Assembly (NCBI GenBank): GCA_026393535.1
Contig: JAPKZY010000107.1
Span: 781-64,780, forward strand
Origin: Actinomycetota bacterium
Lineage (GTDB): Bacteria; Actinomycetota; Acidimicrobiia; Acidimicrobiales; Ilumatobacteraceae
Direction: 5' to 3'
DNA: 64,000 nucleotides
The notes beneath the pieces are model-generated. The model had not been told where the DNA came from. It was given only the letters and a program-made list of their open reading frames with translations, and searched no databases. A program made the position numbers and the translations under genes. Positions 2,299-59,918 of this stretch are shown piece by piece (position 1 is the first letter of the stretch; each line of letters starts with the position of its first letter).

Positions 2299-2832
2299 AT
2301 GAAGTGGAGATTCGCCGCAGTCGCGATTGCAGTTCTTGGCCTATCAGCTTGTGGTGCAGATCCTTCGTCTAATACTGCAGTCGTGGCCACAGTAGCTACT
2401 TCTCCGCAGGGCACTGATTCTCAGCCGGCCGGGAACATTAATAATTTTGTTGCAAAGACAATAAGCGGTGAAACGTTCGAGTTATCGAACGCACTTGCGC
2501 AAAAGCCTGTGGTGTTGTGGTTCTGGGCGCCTGGTTGAGGCACTTGCAATGCTGAAGCCTCCTCGGTCGAGGAGACATGGAAAAAATTTGCAGAGTCGGT
2601 CACTGTTGTGGGCGTGGCATGGGCCGGCGACCAGTCGTCGTACCAGTCCTTTGTTGAACGCCACGGGTTGACATTTGCCAACCTAGATGACACGCCCGGT
2701 GAGATTTATTCCAAATATAAAGTTCCATATCAGCCTGCGTGGGTTTTTATAGCCAGAGACGGAACCGCCACCACACGCATTGGGGTGATCGGCGATTCTG
2801 AGTTATCGCAGTTAATTCAAAAAATGAATTAA
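2299..2832 (+). CDS. MPT53/DsbE/TlpA-like thiol:disulfide oxidoreductase lipoprotein, with an in-frame TGA at 2536-2538 read as candidate selenocysteine (UxxC)
   Basis: Track ORFs 2299..2538 and 2608..2832 are in the same frame and separated only by one TGA. The joined protein reads ...KPVVLWFWAPG-U-GTCNAEASSVEETWKKFAESVTVVGVAWAGDQSSYQSFVERHGLTFANLDDTPGEIYSKYKVPYQPAWVFIARDGT. This parallels the redoxin pattern WFW.PWC..CNAEAP...FV...NL.F.NL.D.DG.I...Y.VP.QPA.VF. The N-terminus carries a signal peptide with lipobox LSAC. Confidence 0.6.
2559..2574 (+). promoter_or_regulatory. SECIS-like hairpin downstream of the in-frame TGA
   Basis: CTCCTC (2559-2564) pairs perfectly with GAGGAG (2569-2574) around a GGTC loop (2565-2568). 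The loop begins 26 nt after the TGA. A possible lower stem pairs TGCAA (2545-2549) with TTGCA (2588-2592). Confidence 0.45.
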
Positions 2833-4358: not shown

Positions 4359-5060
4359 GTGGAGAGGTCGATCAGCGCACAATCAGCTGAAGCTGGCGAG
4401 GTCATCTTCGCGATGGCAAATTACGGCACGTTGCCACACGAATTTCTGGTGACAAAGACTTCCTACGACCCAGGCAAGATCCCCTTGGGATCTGACCTTC
4501 GATTTAACGAGGAAGACAAGGGCCTCTCGGTAGTCGATGAGATTCCTGAATGGGCAGTAAACGAGTCAAAGGTTCTGAAGGTCACCCTTGAAGCGGGAAC
4601 GTATGAGTTGCTGTGCAACATTGAAGGTCATTATGGAAACGGCATGCACACCAGTTTCACTGTTGTTCCCGCAAAAGTGAAGATCAGTGAGACAACTGTT
4701 CCCCCGGCAACAGTTGTCAGTAATGATATTTCAGGCAGCGTGAAAGAATGGGCAGTTGCTGTGAACGCCTCTGAAGCGAAAGCGGGTGACGTGACATTTA
4801 CGATCAAGAACGAGGGCTCAATCCCTCACGAGTTCATTATTGTGAAAACCGATTTCGCACCGGGCAAGATTCCGTTGGGTCCTGATAATCGTTTTGATGA
4901 AGAAGGTAAAGGGGTGTTCGTTCCAGGAGAGATTTCTGAGTGGAATCCTGGGACTACCGGAACTGTCACGCTGAAATTGGAACCTGGCAATTATCAGTTG
5001 TTGTGCAATATTGCTGGTCACTACGCCAATGGGATGTACACGCAACTCACCGTGTCATAA
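4359..5060 (+). CDS. Tandem-duplicated cupredoxin-like (type-1 copper site) protein with no recognisable signal peptide
   Basis: Two homologous halves each carry the ligand pattern PHEF...LLCNI(E/A)GHY(G/A)NGM (His, Cys, His, Met). The start is a GTG at 4359 immediately after an in-frame TAG. The first half lacks the leading strand present in the second half. Confidence 0.6.
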   Translation: MERSISAQSAEAGEVIFAMANYGTLPHEFLVTKTSYDPGKIPLGSDLRFNEEDKGLSVVDEIPEWAVNESKVLKVTLEAGTYELLCNIEGHYGNGMHTSFTVVPAKVKISETTVPPATVVSNDISGSVKEWAVAVNASEAKAGDVTFTIKNEGSIPHEFIIVKTDFAPGKIPLGPDNRFDEEGKGVFVPGEISEWNPGTTGTVTLKLEPGNYQLLCNIAGHYANGMYTQLTVS

Positions 5061-23149: not shown

Positions 23150-23226
23150 GAAATTTCTCTAATCCCCCTAAAACATTGGTTCGGCGATTGTCGTAACCCC
23201 AACCCGCAGATAGGTTTAATCCCGCT

Positions 23227-23538
23227 ATGTACGCAGTAATCGCCTCAGGTGGCAAACAAGAAAAAGTCTCTCAGGGCCAAAAGGTCCAGCTTGAGCTCTT
23301 GCATGTCGAAGACGGTACCGAGGTCTCCCTCATACCCGTTCTCCTCGTTGATGGCACCACGGTGCTCTCGACTCCCGACCAGTTGAAGGGCGCATCTGTC
23401 AAAGGACGCGTCATCGGTACCGAAAAGGGAGTGAAGATCAACGGCTTCACATACAAAAAGCGCACCAACCAGCGTCGTCGCTTTGGTCACCGCCAGCAAT
23501 ATTCTCTTGTTGAAATCACATCCATCGCGAAAGGCTGA
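23227..23538 (+). CDS. rplU: 50S ribosomal protein L21
   Basis: MYAVIASGGKQEKVSQGQKV is the canonical L21 N-terminus. Confidence 0.95.
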   Translation: MYAVIASGGKQEKVSQGQKVQLELLHVEDGTEVSLIPVLLVDGTTVLSTPDQLKGASVKGRVIGTEKGVKINGFTYKKRTNQRRRFGHRQQYSLVEITSIAKG

Positions 23539-23544
23539 TCAACC

Positions 23545-23811
23545 ATGTCAAAGACTAAAGGCGGCGGTTCTACACGTAACGGCCGCGACTCAAATGCACA
23601 ACGACTTGGCGTAAAGGTGTTCGACGGAACACTCATTACAGCAGGCACAATTCTTATTCGTCAACGCGGCACTCGTACCCATCCAGGTAAGAACGTCGGC
23701 ATTGGTAAAGATGACACATTGTTCGCAATGGTGAACGGAAACGTAAAGTTCGGCGAGCGTAAAGGCCGCAAAATTGTTGACGTTCTTCCTATTGAGCCTG
23801 CTGTTGAATAA
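23545..23811 (+). CDS. rpmA: 50S ribosomal protein L27
   Basis: It contains [20 protein letters not shown]...[10 protein letters not shown]. Confidence 0.95.
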
Positions 23812-29126: not shown

Positions 29127-29990
29127 ATGGATAACCGCTTCGAATCTGTTCAATCTGTCCGCGACGGCCTTAAGGACGTCAATTACCTCGCAGACGACGG
29201 GATTGCCGGAGTTGTATTCCTGGCTGATCGCCTCGGAAAGCCAATTCTTGTAGAAGGCCCTGCTGGTACCGGTAAGACCCAATTGGCAAAGAGTGTTGCA
29301 GAAATGATCGGCGCCAAGTTGATTCGTTTGCAGTGCTACGAGGGACTCGATGAATCGAAGGCGCTCTATGAGTGGAACTACAAGAAGCAGTTGTTGCGCA
29401 TTCAGGCCGACCGTAACTCTGACGCGTGGAGCGATATTCACGACGACATTTTTGGTTCCGAATTTCTTTTGACTCGTCCGCTGTTGGAAGCTATTACCTC
29501 AAAAGAACCAGTAGTTCTTTTAATTGACGAAGTTGACCGCGTAGAAGTTGAAACAGAAGCTTTATTGCTGGAAATTCTTTCGGAATACCAGGTGTCAATT
29601 CCTGAACTCGGAACAATTACTGCTACTCAGATTCCTTTGGTGTTCTTGACTTCAAACAACACCCGTGAATTGTCAGAAGCACTCAAGCGTCGTTGCTTGT
29701 TCCTTCATGTTGATTACCCACAAATGGATCGTGAAAAAGAGATTGTTCTTACGAAGGTTCCTGGAGTCACCGAGATGCTTGCAGATCAGATCGCACGCAT
29801 TGTTCGTAGTATTCGTCAGATTGACCTGAAGAAGGCTCCATCGGTTAGTGAAACTATTGACTGGGCACGCACATTGGTATTGCTTGGTATTGGCACCATC
29901 AATGCTGAGCAAGCCAAAGAAACTCTTCACGTGCTCTTGAAGTACCAATCAGATATCGCAAAGGCAGCCAAAGAGCTGTCTGACGACTGA
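29127..29990 (+). CDS. MoxR-family AAA+ ATPase (CoxD-like subgroup)
   Basis: It has Walker A GPAGTGKT, Walker B VLLIDEVDR, and LIRLQCYEGLDESKALYEWNYKKQLL, which is typical of the MoxR/CoxD-like clade. It is followed by a CoxE-like VWA gene. Confidence 0.85.
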   Translation: MDNRFESVQSVRDGLKDVNYLADDGIAGVVFLADRLGKPILVEGPAGTGKTQLAKSVAEMIGAKLIRLQCYEGLDESKALYEWNYKKQLLRIQADRNSDAWSDIHDDIFGSEFLLTRPLLEAITSKEPVVLLIDEVDRVEVETEALLLEILSEYQVSIPELGTITATQIPLVFLTSNNTRELSEALKRRCLFLHVDYPQMDREKEIVLTKVPGVTEMLADQIARIVRSIRQIDLKKAPSVSETIDWARTLVLLGIGTINAEQAKETLHVLLKYQSDIAKAAKELSDD

Positions 29991-30008: not shown

Positions 30009-31448
30009 ATGCTCGATCTTCTGTCCGGGTTCATCATTGAGTTGAGAAATGCTGGTTTGCCAGTAAGTCTCACGGAGAACCTGGATGCCATGCATGCCAT
30101 TTCGCATATTCCCCTAGAGGACCGCGAAGCATTTAAGTACGCACTCGGGGCAACCCTTGTGAAGAACAACGCTCACTGGCGTTCATTTGAGACTGTCTTT
30201 GAGGTGTACTTCAGTTTGCGCGGGCCAGAATATTCCATCACAGACGGTGACGGAGAAGGCAGCATCGACGATTTGTTGCAACAGATGCAAGAAGCCCAGA
30301 TGAAGGGCGAAGGCAATGGTGGCGCTGGCGGAATGGATTCGCTCACACCTGAAGAACTCATGAATATTCTTATGAATGCTCTGATGAACGGCGACCAAGC
30401 TCTCATGCGCGCGTTAGCCCGTCAAGCAGTGCAGCGTTTCGCCGGTATGGAACCAGGTCGCCCAGTAGGGGGCACGTATTACCTCTATCGCACACTACGT
30501 AATCTTGATCTTGACGGCATGCTCGACAAACTTATGGAGGCAAGTAAGAAAGAGGTGGGCGGCGAACTCACCAAGCTCGAAGAGCGTCTTGAAAAGGACG
30601 AATACAACGACCGAATTGAAAAGTTCAAACAAGAAGTTGAAGCTGAAATCCGTCGTCGGTTGGTAGCTGATCGCGGTGCAGAAGCAATGGCAAAGACATT
30701 GCGTAAGCCGCTTCCTGAAGATGTTGAGTTCATGCATGCAAGTCGTGATGAAATGCAAAACCTTAAGAAGTCACTGCAACCGTTGACTCGTAAACTCGCC
30801 GCTCGTTTAGCGCGCAAGCGTCGTCACGGCCGCAAGGGGCCTCTTGATTTTCGCAGCACAGTCCGCCACAGCCTTGCCTACGGCGGTGTGCCTGCTGAAC
30901 CGAAGTTCAAATACCCACGTCCTGCCAAACCAGAGTTGATAGTCATTGCAGATATCTCAGGTTCTGTTGCCGCGTTTGCCCGGTTCACATTGATGCTGGT
31001 GTACGCAATCTCGGGCCAATTCTCCAAAGTCCGCTCGTTTGTTTTCATCGACGGAATTGATGAAGTTACTGAATACTTCAAGAAGACCGAAGACATCTCA
31101 GAGGCGATTCATCGCATCAATACAGAAGCTGACGTGATTTGGGTTGATGGCCACTCTGACTACGGTCATGCCTTTGAAGTCTTTTGGGATAAGTACGGAA
31201 AAGAAATTAATCCAAAGTCAACAGTTCTGTTGCTTGGTGATGCTCGCAACAATTACCACGCGTCTCAAGCGTGGGTTATTAAAGAGATTCGCCAAAAAGC
31301 ACGCCATGTCTACTGGTTGAACCCGGAACCGCGTTCTTATTGGAATACCGGTGACTCAATTGTTGGTGAGTACGGCACTCATACCGATGGTGTCTATGAA
31401 TGTCGCAACCTGCGTCAATTAGAGGCATTTGTCGAGAAGTTGGCGTAA
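30009..31448 (+). CDS. VWA domain-containing CoxE-like protein
   Basis: The N-terminus FIIELRNAGLPVSLTENLDAMHAISHIPLEDREAFKYALGATLVKN is typical of the VWA_CoxE family. The C-terminal VWA domain carries DISGS (MIDAS). Confidence 0.8.
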   Translation: MLDLLSGFIIELRNAGLPVSLTENLDAMHAISHIPLEDREAFKYALGATLVKNNAHWRSFETVFEVYFSLRGPEYSITDGDGEGSIDDLLQQMQEAQMKGEGNGGAGGMDSLTPEELMNILMNALMNGDQALMRALARQAVQRFAGMEPGRPVGGTYYLYRTLRNLDLDGMLDKLMEASKKEVGGELTKLEERLEKDEYNDRIEKFKQEVEAEIRRRLVADRGAEAMAKTLRKPLPEDVEFMHASRDEMQNLKKSLQPLTRKLAARLARKRRHGRKGPLDFRSTVRHSLAYGGVPAEPKFKYPRPAKPELIVIADISGSVAAFARFTLMLVYAISGQFSKVRSFVFIDGIDEVTEYFKKTEDISEAIHRINTEADVIWVDGHSDYGHAFEVFWDKYGKEINPKSTVLLLGDARNNYHASQAWVIKEIRQKARHVYWLNPEPRSYWNTGDSIVGEYGTHTDGVYECRNLRQLEAFVEKLA

Positions 31449-38755: not shown

Positions 38756-38762
38756 TCTCAAT

Positions 38763-38845
38763 CTCACATTAAGAGAGACCAATTGGTCCGGCAACCGGGG
38801 TGACAAGCGCACGGTGCCTCCTCATCGAAAGGTGAGGGATGTGGT
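38763..38845 (+). promoter_or_regulatory. SAM-I-clan (SAM-I / SAM-IV / SAM-I/IV-like) riboswitch aptamer candidate in the metX leader
   Basis: P1 pairs CACAT (38765-69) with ATGTG (38839-43). The junction is AAGAGAG (38771-77). A short P2 pairs GACC with GGTC across an AATT loop (38777-88). The P3 signature has CGGCAACC (38789-96) and GGTGCC (38813-18). P4 pairs CCTCATC with GGTGAGG across a GAAA loop (38820-37). Confidence 0.55.
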
Positions 38846-38919
38846 TCCGCAATCCAGCGGAGCAACAGGTCAGAAGTCTTTCTTTCGTACACATATTTTG
38901 TACCAGCGAAAGGGGACAC

Positions 38920-40107
38920 ATGAACGAGCCATACCGTCATGACCCTGCGCCGTATCCAGCCTCTGGCGGATGGACTCCTGATCAACCTGCTGGTCATCGT
39001 CAGTTTCACCAGTTTGCGCAAACACGCCCTTTCTCTCTTGAAGGCGGTGGATCCTTGCGCGATGTCACGATTGCATACGAGACATGGGGCACTTTGAATG
39101 AGGACGCCTCTAATGCAATCCTCGTGTGTCATGCATGGACGGGCGATAGTCATGTAGCTGGTTCTGCTGGCAAAGGTCATGCAACACCCGGTTGGTGGGA
39201 AGGTGTCGTTGGTCCTGGGAATGCTATTGATACCAACAAATATTTCGTTGTGTGTTCGAACGTGCTGGGCGGATGTCAAGGTTCAACAGGTCCTGCATCG
39301 CCGCATCCTGACGATGGCGAACCGTACGGACTTCGCTTTCCTGTTGTCACAATTCGAGACATGGTGCGTGCGCAGGCTTCTCTTGCTGACGCACTCGGAG
39401 TTAACATTTGGCGAGCAGTTGTTGGTGGCTCCATGGGCGGCATGCAGGCTCTTGAGTGGGCAATTACGTTTCCTACTCGTGTGCGGGCGCTGATCGCAGT
39501 TGCCACGTGCGCCGAGGCTAGTGCGCAACAAATCGCATGGGGCTCTATTGGGCGTCGTGCATTGCTGATGGACCCGGCGTATCAGAACGGTGACTATTAC
39601 AACGCAGGACCAGACGGCGGCCCATGGAATGGCTTTTCGGTGGCGCGCATGATTGCCCAAGTGACTTTCAGAACAGATTCAAAATTCAATGAGAAGTTTG
39701 GTCGGCAATTGAAAGATCAGAATTTCAACTCCGACGGCATTGATCTATTCTCACGCTTTGAAGTAGAGGGGTATCTCGATCATCACGGTGACCGATTGGT
39801 GCGTCGATTTGACGCAAATAGCTATTTGTACATTGGTAAAGCCATGGACCTTCATGACATTGGTCGTGGCCGTGGCGGCCTCGAAGCTGCGTTGGCTCGG
39901 ATCAAGGCGCCCACTCTGACCGTCAGCATTGACTCAGATATCTTGTATCCCGCATACCAACAAGAACTGATTCAATCTCACTTGACGAATAACGATCCGC
40001 GCAATGCGCACAAAGAGATACAGAGCGTCGAAGGTCACGATGGCTTCCTCATCGAAGTTGTGGCTGTGGGCCGACATATTTCTGAATTTCTCACTGCCAC
40101 TCAATAA
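38920..40107 (+). CDS. metX: Homoserine O-acetyltransferase
   Basis: It contains CHAWTGDSHVAG, GPGNAIDTNKYFVVCSNVLGGCQGSTGP and GGSMGGMQALEW (nucleophile elbow). The ATG at 38920 is preceded by GAAAGGGGA. The track start at 38839 falls inside the riboswitch-like element. Confidence 0.9.
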   Translation: MNEPYRHDPAPYPASGGWTPDQPAGHRQFHQFAQTRPFSLEGGGSLRDVTIAYETWGTLNEDASNAILVCHAWTGDSHVAGSAGKGHATPGWWEGVVGPGNAIDTNKYFVVCSNVLGGCQGSTGPASPHPDDGEPYGLRFPVVTIRDMVRAQASLADALGVNIWRAVVGGSMGGMQALEWAITFPTRVRALIAVATCAEASAQQIAWGSIGRRALLMDPAYQNGDYYNAGPDGGPWNGFSVARMIAQVTFRTDSKFNEKFGRQLKDQNFNSDGIDLFSRFEVEGYLDHHGDRLVRRFDANSYLYIGKAMDLHDIGRGRGGLEAALARIKAPTLTVSIDSDILYPAYQQELIQSHLTNNDPRNAHKEIQSVEGHDGFLIEVVAVGRHISEFLTATQ

Positions 40108-56252: not shown

Positions 56253-57228
56253 CGATCATGGCTGTGACATCACCAAGTGGGTACAAGATGGGGCAGGTTG
56301 CGCCATCCTTCATGTATTCACGAACCTTTGCGCGTGCTTCATCTGGTGTTCCCGATGCAGTGAGCATCTGAACAATTTCATCTGGCACAAGCTTTGATGC
56401 AGCCTCGACTTGTTCATGGGTTGCGGGCCATGTCAGAACTTCTCCGACTTTGTCGAGCAATGATTGCGAAACGCCAGACGCCTTCATGATGTGTGGTTGT
56501 TGTCCGAGGTATTGGGTAACCATCATGCGTGCCATGTCAAGAGCAGTTTTGCGATCTTCATGCACGCTGCACACAACGAGTTGTGGTCTGTCGATTTTTT
56601 CCCATGACCGGCCAGCTTTGTCGGCGCCGATAGCAAGATGCTCAAGTGCCTTTTTGTTGTACTCAGGGGACACGAGGTAATTGAGGACAACCCCGTCAGC
56701 GATTTCACCTGCGAGTTCCATCATCTGCATACCGGTTGCGCCGAGATAGATGGGTACATCCTTTGGGCGACGCTCTTGGTACACGTAATCAAGTTCAACG
56801 CCATCGAGGTGAACAAATTCGCCGTTCATGGTGACGGTTTCGTTGGCAAGTAGGGCACGAACTGCAGTGATGATTTCTCGCATTGCGCGAAGTGGCTTAG
56901 CGCGCGAAATACCGACTTTTTCTGCAAGTGGATCCCACCATGCACCGATGCCGAGAATTACGCGACCCGGAGCTAAGTCATCAAGCGTTGAAAAGGTTGC
57001 AGCAAGGCGAGCAGGGTTGCGTGTCCAGCAATCAACAACGCCTGAACCAATCTTGATGGTGTCGGTGACAGCAGCAAACGCTGACATCGGAACTATGGCA
57101 TCACGAACAAGTCGACTATCTGCTTGCCATACGGCTTCGAACCCTTTTTGTTCTGCGTACTTTGTGTATTCCATTCCTTCAGCAATGGGGTGTGCATCTT
57201 GCAAGTAGAGGGCGGCGGGGCTTGTCAT
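56227..57228 (-). CDS. LLM-class F420/flavin-dependent oxidoreductase (methylene-H4MPT reductase-like)
   Basis: It has the LLM pattern ([39 protein letters not shown]). It overlaps the upstream molybdoenzyme gene by 4 nt. Confidence 0.8.
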
Positions 57229-59831
57229 GTTGGGTCCTCGGTTGCATCGGCATTTTTAGGTTTCATTGGAAGTCGGGTACGCCATATTCCGTCTGCTGCA
57301 TGTAATGCCGCGGCAACGGCTGGCGCTGTAGGAACAAGGCCGATCTCGCCGACGCCCTTAATGCCGTAGGGACTGCGTGGTTGCGGACATTCCACCATGA
57401 CAACGTCAACAGGCGGCATGTCTTTCGGGCGAATGATTCCGAGAGAGCGCAATGTCATATTCGTGGGGTAACCCATGTCATCGCTAGGGAAGTCTTCAGT
57501 CAATGCGTATCCAAGACCCATGTGCACTGATCCTTCGATTTGTCCTTCACACAGAGCTGGGTTTACAGCACGGCCAACATCGTGCACAGCGACTACTTTT
57601 TCAATCTTCTGAGTCTCAGGGTCCATAATCACCATCTGTGCCGCATATCCAAATGCAGAGTGAATAATTGGGTTCTCGACACCTGGTTCACCTAAGTGGT
57701 GTGTCCAGTCGATGACGTATTCACCGGTGTAGTCAATTCCGGTCTTGCAGCCATCTTCGAGAGCCGCTGCACATGCCCGTTGCACGCTGGCAGCTGCCAT
57801 GAGAGTGCCACGACTTCCCGTTGTTTGACCAAAACCTAATTGGCGAGTTGTGTCAACGAAGACGCGAATTGTTGACGCGTCGATGCCGAGTTCTTCCACG
57901 GCTACTTGAAGCGCAACAGTATGCACGCCTTGGCCCATCTCGGTCCATCCGTGGCGAACTTCTACGATGCCATCAGTACGGAAGTGCACGACCGCGCGCG
58001 TCACTTCACGGAATCCATTTCCTAGACCAGAGTTCTTCAGTCCAAGTCCAAGACCAACTGCACGTCCCGCGGTAACAGCGGCATCGTATGCAGGTTTAAT
58101 TTCATCAAGACACATATCTGCGCCCTTGCATCCATCATCCATGATTTGGCCTGGGCCCCACACTTGCCCCGGATGAATAACGTTCCGTTTGCGAATCTCC
58201 CAACCAGAAATACCAAGTTGTTCAGCAAGTCGGTCGAGACAGCCTTCCATAGCGAACTGAGCTTGGTTGGCACCGAAACCTCGAAAAGCCCCACAGATAG
58301 GGTTGTTCGTACGAACTGCCACAGAAGCAATATCAACGTTCGGTACAAAATACGGACCAGTTGCATGTCCGGCAGCCCGCTCGAGAACTTTCATGCCAAC
58401 TGATGCGTACGAGCCAGAGTCGCCGATCATCCGTGCATGCACGGCAGTTAGTTTTCCGTTTGCGTCACAGCCAACTGAATACTCCATGCGAATGGGGTGA
58501 CGTTTGGCGTGCATTAGCAAGCTTTCTTCACGCGACAACGTGCAATTGACTGGTTGCTGTAACAACCATGCCGCAAGAGCTGTCTGTCCTTGGTTCGACA
58601 TGTCTTCTTTGCCGCCAAATGCACCACCGTTAGACACCAGTTCAACGATTACTTTGTCTTTCGCAACATTCAAGATGTCGCAGATTTGGTCGCGGTCATC
58701 CCACACGCCTTGGCCACCCGAATACACATGCATTGTGCCATCTTTTGTATTTGGCACTGCAAGAGTTGATTCGGGTTCTAAGAAAGCATGTTCAATGCGT
58801 TGCGTCTGAAAAGTCTCGGTAACTGTGAATGAACTAGAGCTAAGTGCAGACGCAGTGTCACCACGTTGATACTCGCTACGCGACAACACATTGTTTTCAG
58901 TGCCCCACACGGCGATTTCTGTGTCGGTAATTGCTGCAACTGCATCAACGATGGGTCGCAGTGGTGCGTAGGAGACTTTTATCAACTCTGCAGCTGCACG
59001 TGCCTCACGACGAGTACGGGCAACCACTATGGCAAGAACATCGCCTGCATACGACGTACGTTCTCCAACGCCAATAAAGACTGGCCAATCTTTGTAGATA
59101 ATTCCGACACGAATATCCCCAGGAACATCTGCTGCGGTAAACACTGCCTCAACACCAGGTGCAGCGAGAGCAGCGGAAGTGTCAATTTCAAGTACGTCTG
59201 CGCGAACATGGGCGGTGAGGTGGAGCGCTGCGTGCAGCATCCCGGGCACTCTGATGTCGTCGACATATCCACGATCACCGAGAGCTAATTCGGCAGATTC
59301 ATATTTTGCGCCGCGTGAACCGATGCCACCAGGAAGTGAAACGGTGACCGGTGTTCCTTTGGCAACGACATCAATGGCATCGAGAATTTTTACGTATCCG
59401 GTGCAGCGACACAGATGTGCACCAAGGTGGCGCGCCATATCTTCTCGCTGTAGGTCTGCACCCTTTTTATCAATTTGTGACTTTGCACGCATGACAATGC
59501 CGGGAATACAAAAACCGCACTGCAAACCGCCGCACGCCGCGAACGCATCTGAAAAAGTTTGGCGTTCTGATTCGTCGACACCTTCCAATGTGATGATCGT
59601 GCGCCCTGCTGCTTTGGCAACGGGGTACTGGCACGAGACCAGTGCTTTGCCATCAATCATGATGGTGCAGCAGCCGCATTGACCAGTGGGCGAGCACCCG
59701 TCCTTTGGTGACGTGATATTCAGTTCGTCTCGTAAGGCTGCAAGCAGGTGCGGATGGTCGGAAGCGACTGATACGTCCTGGCCGTTGACCCGAAATGAGA
59801 CACGTGTGGATGAGTCGGCTAGATCAGTCAT
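57225..59831 (-). CDS. MOP-type molybdopterin aldehyde oxidoreductase: N-terminal double [2Fe-2S] domain fused to a xanthine-oxidase-family Mo-cofactor subunit, with no FAD domain
   Basis: The N-terminus has [35 protein letters not shown] and CRCTGY (two 2Fe-2S sites). An approximately 700-aa aldehyde-oxidase/xanthine-dehydrogenase a/b-hammerhead and Moco-binding region follows. The ATG is at 59831; the track start at 59840 is a TTG. Confidence 0.85.
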
Positions 59832-59918
59832 TGGAACCAACTTATACGAAAAGTAAAACTAAAAGCCATAAAGTTCTTGGGTTTCATGCAGTGGACGCGT
59901 GGCGAATAGGGTTCCCCT

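Follow-up and report, generated by a model that had tools for sequence, protein, structure and literature searches.

A probable selenocysteine-containing DsbE-like lipoprotein with a SECIS-type hairpin, annotated in fragments, in freshwater Ilumatobacteraceae

When a single TGA splits an otherwise continuous reading frame, is it a stop, a lesion or a codon that is read? The question is raised by positions 2299-2832 (+ strand, as for all features described below) of a 64,000-nucleotide stretch of an Ilumatobacteraceae genome, here called the window, where one frame is broken by a lone TGA at 2536-2538 and reads WFWAPG-TGA-GTCNAEA. The whole gene opens with ATG at 2299 and runs for 177 codons, the TGA being codon 80, up to what the sequence gives as the true stop, a TAA at 2830-2832. 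ORF callers return two separate halves for this region. GenBank lists it as a 'hypothetical protein' of 79 aa (MCX6516902.1, with MEI6298065.1 as the counterpart in the closest MAG), while its JGI/IMG entry consists of C-terminal halves of 72-78 aa labelled 'peroxiredoxin'. An earlier note on this DNA had joined the two halves (2299..2538 and 2608..2832) into one gene for a selenocysteine (Sec)-containing lipoprotein, and the elements that it described in the joined frame are all present where it placed them. We reach the same reading, with a probability of roughly 90%: 2299-2832 encodes one 177-residue selenoprotein, a lipid-tethered enzyme of the TlpA/DsbE/DsbF type with a SECIS-directed Sec80. 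On this reading, the gene for a Sec-containing DsbE-like lipoprotein is wrongly annotated in public records.

The joined 177-aa product matches the Pfam families AhpC-TSA (8.7e-16), Redoxin (1.3e-11) and Thioredoxin (2.2e-8). Its best PDB match by phmmer is MPT53/DsbE of M. tuberculosis (1LU4, E=1.4e-26, residues 49-159), and DsbF (3IOS) is matched at E=4.8e-19 over residues 49-173. For the structure we relied on the AF2 model of a natural Cys orthologue, P0001 (82% identical), not on a model of the window protein itself. Block-mean pLDDT in this model is at least 88 across residues 51-177, and Cys80 is placed between a strand (71-76) and a helix (81-96). The top Foldseek matches of the model are 1LU4 (TM 0.85, rmsd 1.7 A), 3IOS (TM 0.90, rmsd 1.3 A) and ResA, all with TM 0.85-0.90. 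From the phmmer matches, the model and Foldseek, the catalytic domain is delimited as a thioredoxin-fold (TlpA/DsbE/DsbF-like) domain of residues 48-177 (2440-2829), which, as modelled, has the redox pair at the N-terminus of helix alpha-1 and TlpA-type insertions. Sequence (1LU4) and fold (TM 0.85-0.90) agree on the MPT53/DsbE-like assignment proposed at the outset, and the MPT53 active-site motif quoted in the earlier note, WFWTPWCPFCNAEA, proved right on alignment with 1LU4.

Residues 1-18 (MKWRFAAVAIAVLGLSAC, 2299-2352) have the make-up of a lipoprotein signal peptide, as previously suggested, with a basic n-region (K2, R4), a hydrophobic core and a lipobox, L-S-A-C, ending in Cys18 (2350-2352). 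Cys18 is invariant in our alignment A2, and a lipobox-like motif was seen in 137 of 150 unique N-termini of relatives; in ten of the exceptions the motif is relaxed, with VFGC and GAGC as examples. In 23 unique N-termini among the relatives, a twin-arginine-like motif is present besides the lipobox-like motif. The signal is followed by a weakly conserved Ser/Thr/Pro/Ala-rich stretch (residues 19-47, 2353-2439) that probably tethers the catalytic domain to its lipid anchor. The pLDDT of the P0001 model is below 50 across most of residues 1-38, and the distance between the lipobox Cys and the Sec varies from 37 to 316 residues among relatives. The export signal is predicted to place the domain outside the cytoplasm, where the protein would be anchored by lipidation.

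Two further residues belong to the predicted active site. Cys83 (TGC, 2545-2547), the presumed resolving Cys of the UxxC motif, is invariant in alignment A2 and occupies columns 10-12 of an alignment of 113 unique sequences, in which its TG never varies and its third base is C or T. Pro146 (CCT, 2734-2736), part of a conserved Q-P-A-W-V-F motif, is invariant in alignments A1 and A2 and aligned with WQPAFVF of MPT53; it is expected to form the cis-proline loop facing the active site, a conformation that we assume from general knowledge of the thioredoxin fold.

The label 'peroxiredoxin' (AhpC/TSA) used by JGI was rejected: the active site, A-P-G-U-G-T-C, is of the UxxC type and has no peroxidatic PxxxT/SxxC, and the PF00578 match of the window protein reflects the common redoxin superfamily. 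Membership of the ResA or CcmG/DsbE equivalogs was rejected too, with scores of 55.5 against a cut-off of 170 for ResA (NF002854), 25.6 against 123 for dsbE (TIGR00385) and 21 against 359 for PRK15412; no NCBIfam model scored above its cut-off on this protein. Neighbourhood analysis revealed no ccdA, resB/resC or ccm genes adjoining the selenoprotein gene in any clade, nor any other adjoining redox partner of the kinds considered (CcdA, VKOR, ResB/C). The genes next to it are housekeeping genes, unlike from clade to clade.

The TGA at 2536-2538 lies exactly in the column of the first Cys of CxxC in the Cys homologues P0001-P0011, MPT53 and DsbF, i.e. at the first position of UxxC, which makes it the predicted codon for U80 and bears out the position assigned to it in the earlier note. 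We gathered 164 related loci, mostly from Ilumatobacteraceae/Acidimicrobiia MAGs and lake metagenomes, on contigs drawn from ENA, JGI, Logan and GenBank. The TGA was kept in 161 of the 164, down to about 35-40% protein identity (78/80 loci from GTDB species-representative genomes and 80/80 metagenome loci). The nearest full-length match in protein databases, P0001 (locus L004), has TGC at codon 80, as would be expected if the TGA of the window were a nonsense mutation, the mark of a decaying pseudogene or a sequencing error of the assembly. However, P0001 is a single Cys convert nested among 30-40 Sec forms, and the same TGA recurs on 161 contigs that are independent of one another, come from many samples and represent about 78 species-level genomes; the diversity of the contig sources also argues against an artefact of a single pipeline. 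Purifying selection is undiminished past the TGA, with no more stops or frameshifts, in agreement with the original view that this is not a decayed gene. The concern that relatives might carry TGC/TGT instead is answered by the same counts, the Cys forms being rare and nested inside Sec clades. A mutation, a pseudogene or an error is thus already refuted as an explanation, and we give it next to no weight.

Could the TGA be a genuine stop? NCBI (MCX6516902.1), JGI and the ORF callers all treat the halves separately, which would correspond to a 79-residue N-terminal lipopeptide and a separate 74-residue C-terminal fragment starting at GTG 2608. The entropies at the three codon positions are 0.95/0.80/1.52 bits upstream of the TGA and 1.00/0.82/1.59 bits downstream, i.e. 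coding constraint is alike on both sides, suggesting that the gene is translated through the TGA. Even in the 69 nt that separate the TGA from GTG 2608 the same frame is constrained (0.74/0.57/1.35 bits), and N-A-E-A, a motif that MPT53 also has, lies in this stretch together with the invariant resolving Cys. In two relatives (L002 and L003), moreover, the supposed second gene begins at the codon directly after the TGA. Neither half is predicted to make a folded thioredoxin domain, since strand 71-76 and helix 81-96 of the model flank the TGA. A genuine stop therefore seems to us hardly tenable. Elsewhere in the window TGA is an ordinary stop: it terminates 15 of the 47 long ORFs, among them the gene immediately upstream, and the 147 unique orthologues themselves end in TAA (72), TGA (59) or TAG (16). 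Genome-wide recoding of TGA can be dismissed on these grounds.

If the codon is read through in this gene and is a stop in others, what singles it out? A hairpin lies within the coding sequence at 2559-2574, with a 5' arm CTCCTC (2559-2564), a GGTC loop (2565-2568) and a 3' arm GAGGAG (2569-2574). The 6-bp stem is perfect and the loop starts 26 nt past the TGA, just as first described, and the local MFE is -9.7 kcal/mol. A 4-nt loop starting with GG, a 6-bp stem, a 26-nt spacing and this folding energy place the hairpin within all four published limits for bacterial SECIS elements (bSECIS; PMC13188914). Upon folding of 113 homologues, 92 were at or below -7.5 and 106 gave an MFE structure with a GGUC tetraloop. 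The hairpin core, C[C/T]TCGGTCGA at 2561-2570, is invariant: columns 26 and 28-35 do not change in the 113 unique sequences, while column 27, either C or T, covaries with column 36. The 27-36 pair (CG in 103 sequences, UA in 8 and UG in 2) is never broken, and pair 24-39 is found as six standard pair types. RNAalifold returned the 3 innermost pairs only from the 113-sequence alignment, and we therefore tested the 8-pair helix explicitly; 83% of helix cells were paired, compared to 35-54% in slid controls. Wherever the TGA is kept the hairpin is kept as well, and pairs 27-36 and 24-39 bear compensatory changes; the hairpin is lost in the older Cys lineages, as the Sec reading had demanded from the start.

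Not all measures single out this hairpin. Folded as a single sequence, the region does not outperform shuffled sequence (z = 0.26 and 0.11), and an alternative fold competes once the folded segment takes in the first few bases past the UGA; these z-scores are uninformative by themselves, and the comparative evidence is overwhelming. Rfam, which is without a good bacterial SECIS model, yielded no SECIS family at the gathering threshold across the whole window nor at E<=10 within 2480-2660, its weak matches being noise.

The hairpin codons encode a conserved P/S-S-V-E, and conservation could therefore partly act at the protein level. One could imagine that the gene does encode a selenoprotein, while the conservation of CCTCGGTCGAGG serves the S-V-E peptide, or an RNA function other than that of a SECIS; the peptide that this element encodes and its unremarkable thermodynamic stability would both be in line with this. 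Against it, the third bases of Ser89 (TCG) and Val90 (GTC) are frozen (entropy 0.00, 147/147 genes), whereas 12 equally conserved four-fold codons used as controls in the 147 genes vary by 1.47-1.97 bits. Protein-level constraint is thus unlikely to be the whole cause of the conservation. The stem pairs also covary through synonymous changes (CCC..GAG to CCT..GAA), and no rival conserved hairpin was found within the 16-37 nt spacing range. Finally, the Cys forms have T-I, M-V, A-I or D-V where the Sec forms have S-V, showing that S-V is not needed by the protein. We see very little chance that the element is anything other than the SECIS of this gene.

The Cys forms provide a further view of the hairpin. 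In the tree they arise at three separate places inside Sec clades, and the hairpin is destroyed in two of these three reverted lineages, P0011 and a Cys clade that reads CCGACGATCGAGG or CCGATGGTCGAGG at the site and has lost the structure for that reason; it is retained in the recent convert L004. The three independent Sec-to-Cys replacements amount to a natural experiment on SECIS decay, in which the conversion of L004 would be so recent that a useless SECIS remains intact.

Decoding of UGA as Sec requires a dedicated machinery, and selA, selB, selD and tRNA-Sec were not found within the 64-kb window; NCBIfam profiles likewise identified no sel or yqe genes among its 47 long ORFs. Searches of 1.49 Mb from the 164 loci for SelA (SGDK..GGPQ), SelB (GH[VI]DHGK[TS]) and SelD (G.G[CU]..K) motifs, and with ARAGORN for tRNA-Sec, gave none. 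Two scans for a second selenoprotein gene in the window or related loci were also negative. The first required an in-frame TGA flanked to either side by at least 40 open codons and followed, 14-35 nt further on, by a hairpin with a GGTC loop; it produced 15 candidates that all resembled off-frame noise. The second, for same-frame ORF pairs split by TGA in the window, left only 2299-2832, a pair at 23197-23811 being rplU plus rpmA. A near-threshold match to selenium-dependent xanthine dehydrogenase was also obtained within the window, where a TIGR03311-like gene at 57225-59840 may mark a second selenium trait.

The negative searches for Sec machinery, both in the window and across the 1.49 Mb from its relatives, would suit an alternative in which the UGA, aided by the hairpin or through near-cognate decoding, specifies a residue other than Sec (e.g. 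Cys brought by a SelB-like factor and a selC-like tRNA(Cys), or Trp or Cys by read-through), yielding a full-length, selenium-free protein. The comparative data indicate that the UGA is translated and the hairpin needed, not which residue enters, and SelB-dependent Cys recoding has been proposed. We nevertheless consider this improbable. The hairpin fits a standard SelB-type bSECIS with the GGUC loop of E. coli fdhF, and the site is where a redox motif has its nucleophilic Cys, which is the classic position for a Sec/Cys exchange. For Cys insertion, a TGC would suffice with no recoding apparatus, yet 161 of 164 loci keep the TGA. Besides the probable Se-dependent enzyme gene in the window, Sec machinery is reported for the related Actinomarinales (another order of the class Acidimicrobiia), a 2026 preprint describing selA/B/C/D in all Actinomarina genomes (bioRxiv 10.64898/2026.04.03.716425). 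We infer that selenocysteine is actually inserted at codon 80 and that selA, selB, selC and selD are present in this organism. The Actinomarina preprint was the only report that we found on selenoproteins of Ilumatobacter or Acidimicrobiia.

In this context two statements of the earlier note need to be toned down. Sec was said to be rare in actinobacteria and mostly limited to formate dehydrogenase, but its use is wider there, with 12 families (PMC1794560) in addition to the Actinomarina selA/B/C/D genes. The presumed rarity of an oxidoreductase of this kind was also overstated, as UxxC thioredoxin-fold and TlpA-like proteins rank with the most frequent families of predicted selenoproteins in bacteria (PMC1088965, PMC2398784, PMC13188914). 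Predicted Sec UxxC families of the thioredoxin fold, from genomes and from marine and other metagenomes, include the 'Prx-like thiol:disulfide oxidoreductase' or 'Prx-like 1' (PF00578), the 'Prx-like 3' or 'Redoxin family protein' (PF08534), 'Trx-like 1' (COG0526), the 'Thiol-disulfide isomerase-like' (cd02966, TlpA-like) and the 'Thiol:disulfide interchange protein' (PF13098) (PMC1794560, PMC1088965, PMC2398784, PMC13188914). These share with the window gene the UxxC motif, the Pfam families, the Sec/Cys pair and an intragenic SECIS; they are broad Pfam/COG bins, however, and the match to them (type sequences include WP_010940744.1, MGB1650493.1 and HEU0032618.1) is one of motif and Pfam/CDD class. 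No MPT53/DsbE-like Sec lipoprotein of freshwater Ilumatobacteraceae is described in the searchable literature on UxxC Sec families. Since UxxC thioredoxin-fold selenoproteins are well known, the gene is a new, unannotated member of this group rather than a new mechanism.

The closest solved relatives in both sequence and fold are MPT53/DsbE (Rv2878c, 1LU4) and DsbF (Rv1677, 3IOS). All three proteins are exported and actinobacterial (the window protein by its predicted signal), with a common active-site context of WFW-x-P-x-[C/U]-x-x-C-N-A-E-A and a common cis-Pro motif, Q-P-A. They differ in that MPT53 and DsbF have Cys (CPFC and CPTC) where the window protein has Sec (UGTC), with an identity of only about 40%, and in that MPT53 is secreted as a soluble protein whereas the window family bears a conserved lipobox; the in-vitro oxidase behaviour of MPT53 and DsbF is thus not simply transferable. 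Next in sequence and fold similarity come ResA, CcmG (DsbE) and TlpA, also membrane-tethered extracytoplasmic thioredoxin-fold proteins with a CxxC. This group comprises reductases of cytochrome maturation and of copper sites; the window protein is far below the NCBIfam cut-offs for ResA and DsbE and has no ccdA/resBC/ccm neighbours. Among the Foldseek matches are also Etrx1 and Etrx2 of S. pneumoniae (4HQS, 4HQZ), lipoprotein-anchored extracellular TlpA-like thioredoxins that may offer a functional analogy, namely repair of oxidative damage at the surface. They are Cys-based and only about 22-25% identical, and are encoded beside their partners, whereas the window gene has no adjoining partner.

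The archetype for the RNA element is the fdhF SECIS of E. coli, likewise a hairpin in coding sequence just past the UGA, in which the loop G and U contact SelB. Both hairpins have a GGUC apical tetraloop, an identity that the earlier note had stated correctly. The loop starts 26 nt after the UGA in the window gene and 18 nt after it in fdhF, and the stems are unrelated in sequence. The window hairpin also lacks a bulged U in the upper stem; in its place most orthologues carry a mismatch, C.A or the like, at pair 25.38.

We propose the following sequence of events. Translation would begin at ATG 2299 and reach the UGA at 2536-2538, where the hairpin at 2559-2574, 21 nt downstream and with its GGUC loop, would act as a bacterial SECIS and recruit SelB-GTP-Sec-tRNA(Sec). 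Selenocysteine would be inserted as residue 80 and translation would go on to the TAA at 2830. The precursor would then be exported and lipid-modified at Cys18, leaving the domain anchored on the outside of the cytoplasmic membrane. In the predicted U-G-T-C redox centre, Sec80 would be the attacking nucleophile and Cys83 the resolving residue, and the enzyme would carry out thiol-disulfide (selenylsulfide) exchange on exported proteins, its presumptive substrates, possibly as an oxidase or as a reductase. Because the loop is of the E. coli type, E. coli may be able to express the native gene.

For public annotation, the result turns fragments in GenBank and IMG into one predicted selenoprotein gene. 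For the lineage, Sec is the usual state: about 78 species-level Ilumatobacteraceae/Acidimicrobiia genomes have this form, as does every relative retrieved from lake metagenomes. It is conceivable that a site-specific UGA recoding that dispenses with selenium operates throughout the lineage by way of the SECIS-like hairpin, e.g. insertion of Cys by a SelB-like factor and a selC-like tRNA, but this strikes us as very improbable. A less exotic and more likely reading, which we put forward tentatively and at somewhat less than even odds, is that this exported Sec-lipoprotein is what maintains the Sec trait, and with it a need for selenium, throughout freshwater acIV/Ilumatobacteraceae, with at least three independent Sec-to-Cys reversions. 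Comparison of the Cys and Sec forms may tell what advantage an extracytoplasmic oxidoreductase gains from Sec in oxic water. The prevalence of the Sec form in genomes and lake metagenomes implies a selenium dependence of an abundant, hard-to-culture freshwater actinobacterial lineage which, if true, would be relevant for the design of cultivation media.

The reading frame at 2299-2832 (+ strand) is well supported, on comparative sequence grounds, as a genuine selenoprotein gene. It has 177 codons, ends in TAA and is interrupted only by the TGA at 2536-2538 (WFWAPG-TGA-GTCNAEA). The N-terminus, MKWRFAAVAIAVLGLSAC, consists of a basic n-region and a hydrophobic core followed by the lipobox L-S-A-C; the earlier note had described the frame, lipobox, TGA position and hairpin, and each of these elements is correct at the sequence level. 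Public annotation splits the gene into two (2299-2538 and 2608-2832): in GenBank, the N-terminal 79 aa are 'MAG: hypothetical protein NTZ62_09765' (MCX6516902.1; contig of 65,516 bp) and the N-terminal piece in the closest MAG, L005, is MEI6298065.1, while JGI/IMG labels C-terminal pieces of 72-78 aa 'peroxiredoxin'. The latter label is unfit, because the T/SxxC peroxidatic motif is absent.

When the TGA is read as Cys, the joined product gives matches to the Pfam family AhpC-TSA (8.7e-16), as well as to Redoxin and Thioredoxin. In sequence searches of solved structures, the top matches were M. tuberculosis MPT53/DsbE (1LU4, E=1.4e-26) and DsbF (3IOS, 4.8e-19), followed by ResA (about 1e-7); no NCBIfam model reached its cut-off for the joined product (ResA 55.5 vs 170, DsbE 25.6 vs 123). 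The alignment to MPT53 (1LU4) shows VLWFWTPWCPFCNAEAPS, in agreement with the MPT53 motif given in the earlier note. We also examined a structure model of P0001, a natural Cys orthologue 82% identical to the window protein. Block-mean pLDDT is 88 or higher over residues 51-177 of this model, which places residue 80 between strand 71-76 and helix 81-96, and Foldseek retrieved DsbE (TM 0.85, rmsd 1.7 Å) and DsbF (TM 0.90, rmsd 1.3 Å), then ResA. Together, the alignments to Cys homologues and the modelled fold indicate that the TGA corresponds to the first residue, the nucleophile, of a thioredoxin-type CxxC.

A protein-database search gave few matches, the full-length ones being Cys forms without exception; for three N-terminally 'truncated' matches, the DNA shows the same gene with TGA in the same column. 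Scans of GTDB species-representative genomes and JGI metagenomes yielded 160 further loci, nearly all belonging to Ilumatobacteraceae/Acidimicrobiia MAGs or lake metagenomes; L005 and L085 are the closest, at 95-96% identity. Relatives keep the TGA rather than a Cys codon, a point the earlier note had wanted checked: the first CxxC position is TGA in 161/164 loci and TGC in two (L004 and L027), the remaining locus being without that gene end. In loci from GTDB species-representative genomes, the count is 78/80. GenBank titles several lake MAGs with an Ilumatobacteraceae-type locus (L006, L013, L014, L021, L032, L036 and L039) as 'Bifidobacterium breve' or 'uncultured Bifidobacterium sp.', almost certainly wrong taxonomic labels.

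Codon-position entropies (positions 1/2/3), computed over 147 unique orthologues, were 0.95/0.80/1.52 in the 25 codons 5′ of the TGA, 0.74/0.57/1.35 in the seven codons directly 3′ of it and 1.00/0.82/1.59 in the remainder of the gene, with no additional stops or frameshifts. Judged by these patterns, translation continues across the TGA, and a decayed pseudogene and a sequencing error are excluded. Two separate genes, the second starting at the next possible start, GTG 2608, are likewise excluded, since the constrained stretch between TGA and GTG includes the resolving Cys83 (TG invariant, third base C or T). Nor is TGA reassigned in this genome: 15 of the window's 47 long ORFs end in it, among them the gene that stops 4 nt before 2299, and it is the true stop of 59/147 unique orthologues. 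Those 59 have, on one mRNA, a Sec-UGA with its SECIS and, about 98 codons further on, a UGA that terminates translation.

The hairpin downstream of the TGA has a perfect 6-bp stem (CTCCTC 2559-2564, GAGGAG 2569-2574, + strand) and a GGTC loop (2565-2568) that begins 26 nt past the TGA. We aligned 113 unique 60-nt segments without gaps, each starting at the TGA; columns 26 and 28-35 do not vary and column 27 is either C or T, giving the core C[C/T]TCGGTCGA. As a synonymous-site control, we took the 14 amino-acid columns conserved at ≥95% whose codons are four-fold or six-fold degenerate. At 12 of these the entropy of the third base was 1.47-1.97 bits, and it was 0.00 at exactly two, Ser89 (TCG 147/147) and Val90 (GTC 147/147), whose codons spell the GGUC loop; across the six hairpin codons it was 0.53 bits vs. 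1.35-1.59 elsewhere. Helix 22-29:34-41 is paired in 83% of cells, vs. 35-54% once the partner is displaced by 1-3 columns. No sequence breaks pair 27-36 (CG 103, UA 8, UG 2), where the change leaves both codons synonymous (CCC..GAG to CCT..GAA), and pair 24-39 varies as CG 66, AU 15, UG 7, UA 3, GC 2 and GU 2. Position 25.38 is mismatched in most sequences and is U-A in the window, hence the continuous 6-bp stem. The window hairpin, at -9.7 kcal/mol, fits the published bSECIS criteria (PMC13188914); 92/113 homologues fold at or below the energy limit of -7.5, and the tetraloop fold was found in 106/113; single-sequence folding of the region was not significant and no Rfam family matched it. 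The covariation and synonymous constraint indicate that the hairpin is under selection as RNA and is coupled to the TGA. As the earlier note stated, the E. coli fdhF SECIS has the same loop: its sequence, which occurs with 100% identity in at least 5,413/5,426 E. coli genomes, also folds with a GGUC tetraloop, there 18 nt after the UGA.

Conservation of the hairpin alongside the TGA, with compensatory pairs, contrasts with its fate in the Cys clade (L027, L165, L169; P0002-P0010). This clade is syntenic with the Sec forms (lpdA, 142-aa ORF, redoxin, OB-fold protein, two trkA genes), and its hairpin site has CCGACGATCGAGG or CCGATGGTCGAGG, which translate to P-T-I-E or P-M-V-E, with the 5′ arm and loop destroyed; P0011, another Cys form, has A-D-V-E. 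The L004 locus, which encodes P0001, has TGC yet an intact hairpin, and its domain is 95% identical to Sec forms. In a neighbour-joining tree rooted on MPT53/DsbF, which carries no support values, Cys forms occur at three separate places, each nested in Sec clades, suggesting that Sec is ancestral in this DsbE-like family, with at least three Sec-to-Cys reversions.

No tRNA-Sec, selA, selB or selD was found in the window, which was searched with ARAGORN and Rfam and, for each of its 47 long ORFs, with NCBIfam. None was found in 1.49 Mb of related loci, nor a second selenoprotein gene in either. selA/B/C/D are reported in all 84 complete genomes of Actinomarina, of the same class Acidimicrobiia (2026 preprint, bioRxiv 10.64898/2026.04.03.716425). 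An 871-aa molybdopterin/Fe-S protein at 57225-59840 (− strand) matches NCBIfam TIGR03311, 'selenium-dependent xanthine dehydrogenase' (E=1.6e-246), at 820.5 bits, slightly below the curated cut-off of 830.45. Should the protein truly belong to this family, its host would also have the labile-selenium molybdenum cofactor, needing SelD, YqeB and YqeC, none of which NCBIfam detected among the long ORFs of the window. The preprint and, if genuine, this gene lend indirect support to the presence of Sec machinery.

Elsewhere in the window, a SAM-I/IV riboswitch (38761-38879, + strand; Rfam RF01725, 46.4 bits vs. gathering score 41.1) lies directly 5′ of metX, homoserine O-acetyltransferase (38839-40107, + strand). 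The start as called, 38839, overlaps the riboswitch, and since the NCBIfam match covers the protein only from residue 54 onwards, the true start is probably further downstream. Adjoining genes for a MadB-family AAA ATPase (29127-29990, + strand; E=5.5e-95, 318 bits, under the cut-off of 475) and a MadC-family VWA-domain protein (30009-31448, + strand; E=2.6e-42, under cut-off) bear no relation to the selenoprotein.

As the most likely mechanism, to which we give a probability of roughly 0.9 from the sequence evidence, SelB with Sec-tRNA(Sec) would decode UGA 2536-2538, directed by hairpin 2559-2574. Export of the full-length precursor and its lipidation at Cys18 would follow; 137/150 unique N-termini of relatives carry a lipobox. 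In 23/150 it accompanies a twin-arginine-like motif (for example SRRALLRT in L002, 1437-1997; 22 other loci also combine the two), which suggests that some family members are exported as folded selenoproteins by the Tat pathway. Sec80 and Cys83 of the tethered DsbE/DsbF-like domain are predicted to perform thiol-disulfide exchange on exported proteins. No CcdA, VKOR or ResBC partner adjoins the gene in any clade examined. About 1.5 kb away, 4359-5060 (+ strand) encodes a 233-aa protein with two tandem cupredoxin-like domains, each ending ...CNI.GHY.NGM, and weak matches to EfeO, CopI and sulfocyanin; the pairing is kept in only about 10 loci. Linking the redoxin to the maturation of copper sites, by analogy with TlpA, is speculative.

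The earlier note called such a selenoprotein unusual, which was overstated, since selenoproteins with a thioredoxin fold and a UxxC motif have been known for a long time and abound in metagenomes, including Prx-like 1 (PF00578), Prx-like 3/Redoxin family (PF08534), Trx-like 1 (COG0526) and thiol-disulfide isomerase-like (cd02966, TlpA-like) families (PMC1794560, PMC1088965, PMC2398784, PMC13188914). What appears to be undescribed in the searchable literature is an MPT53/DsbE-like lipoprotein selenoprotein family, its strikingly invariant SECIS and the near-universal Sec form across freshwater Ilumatobacteraceae.
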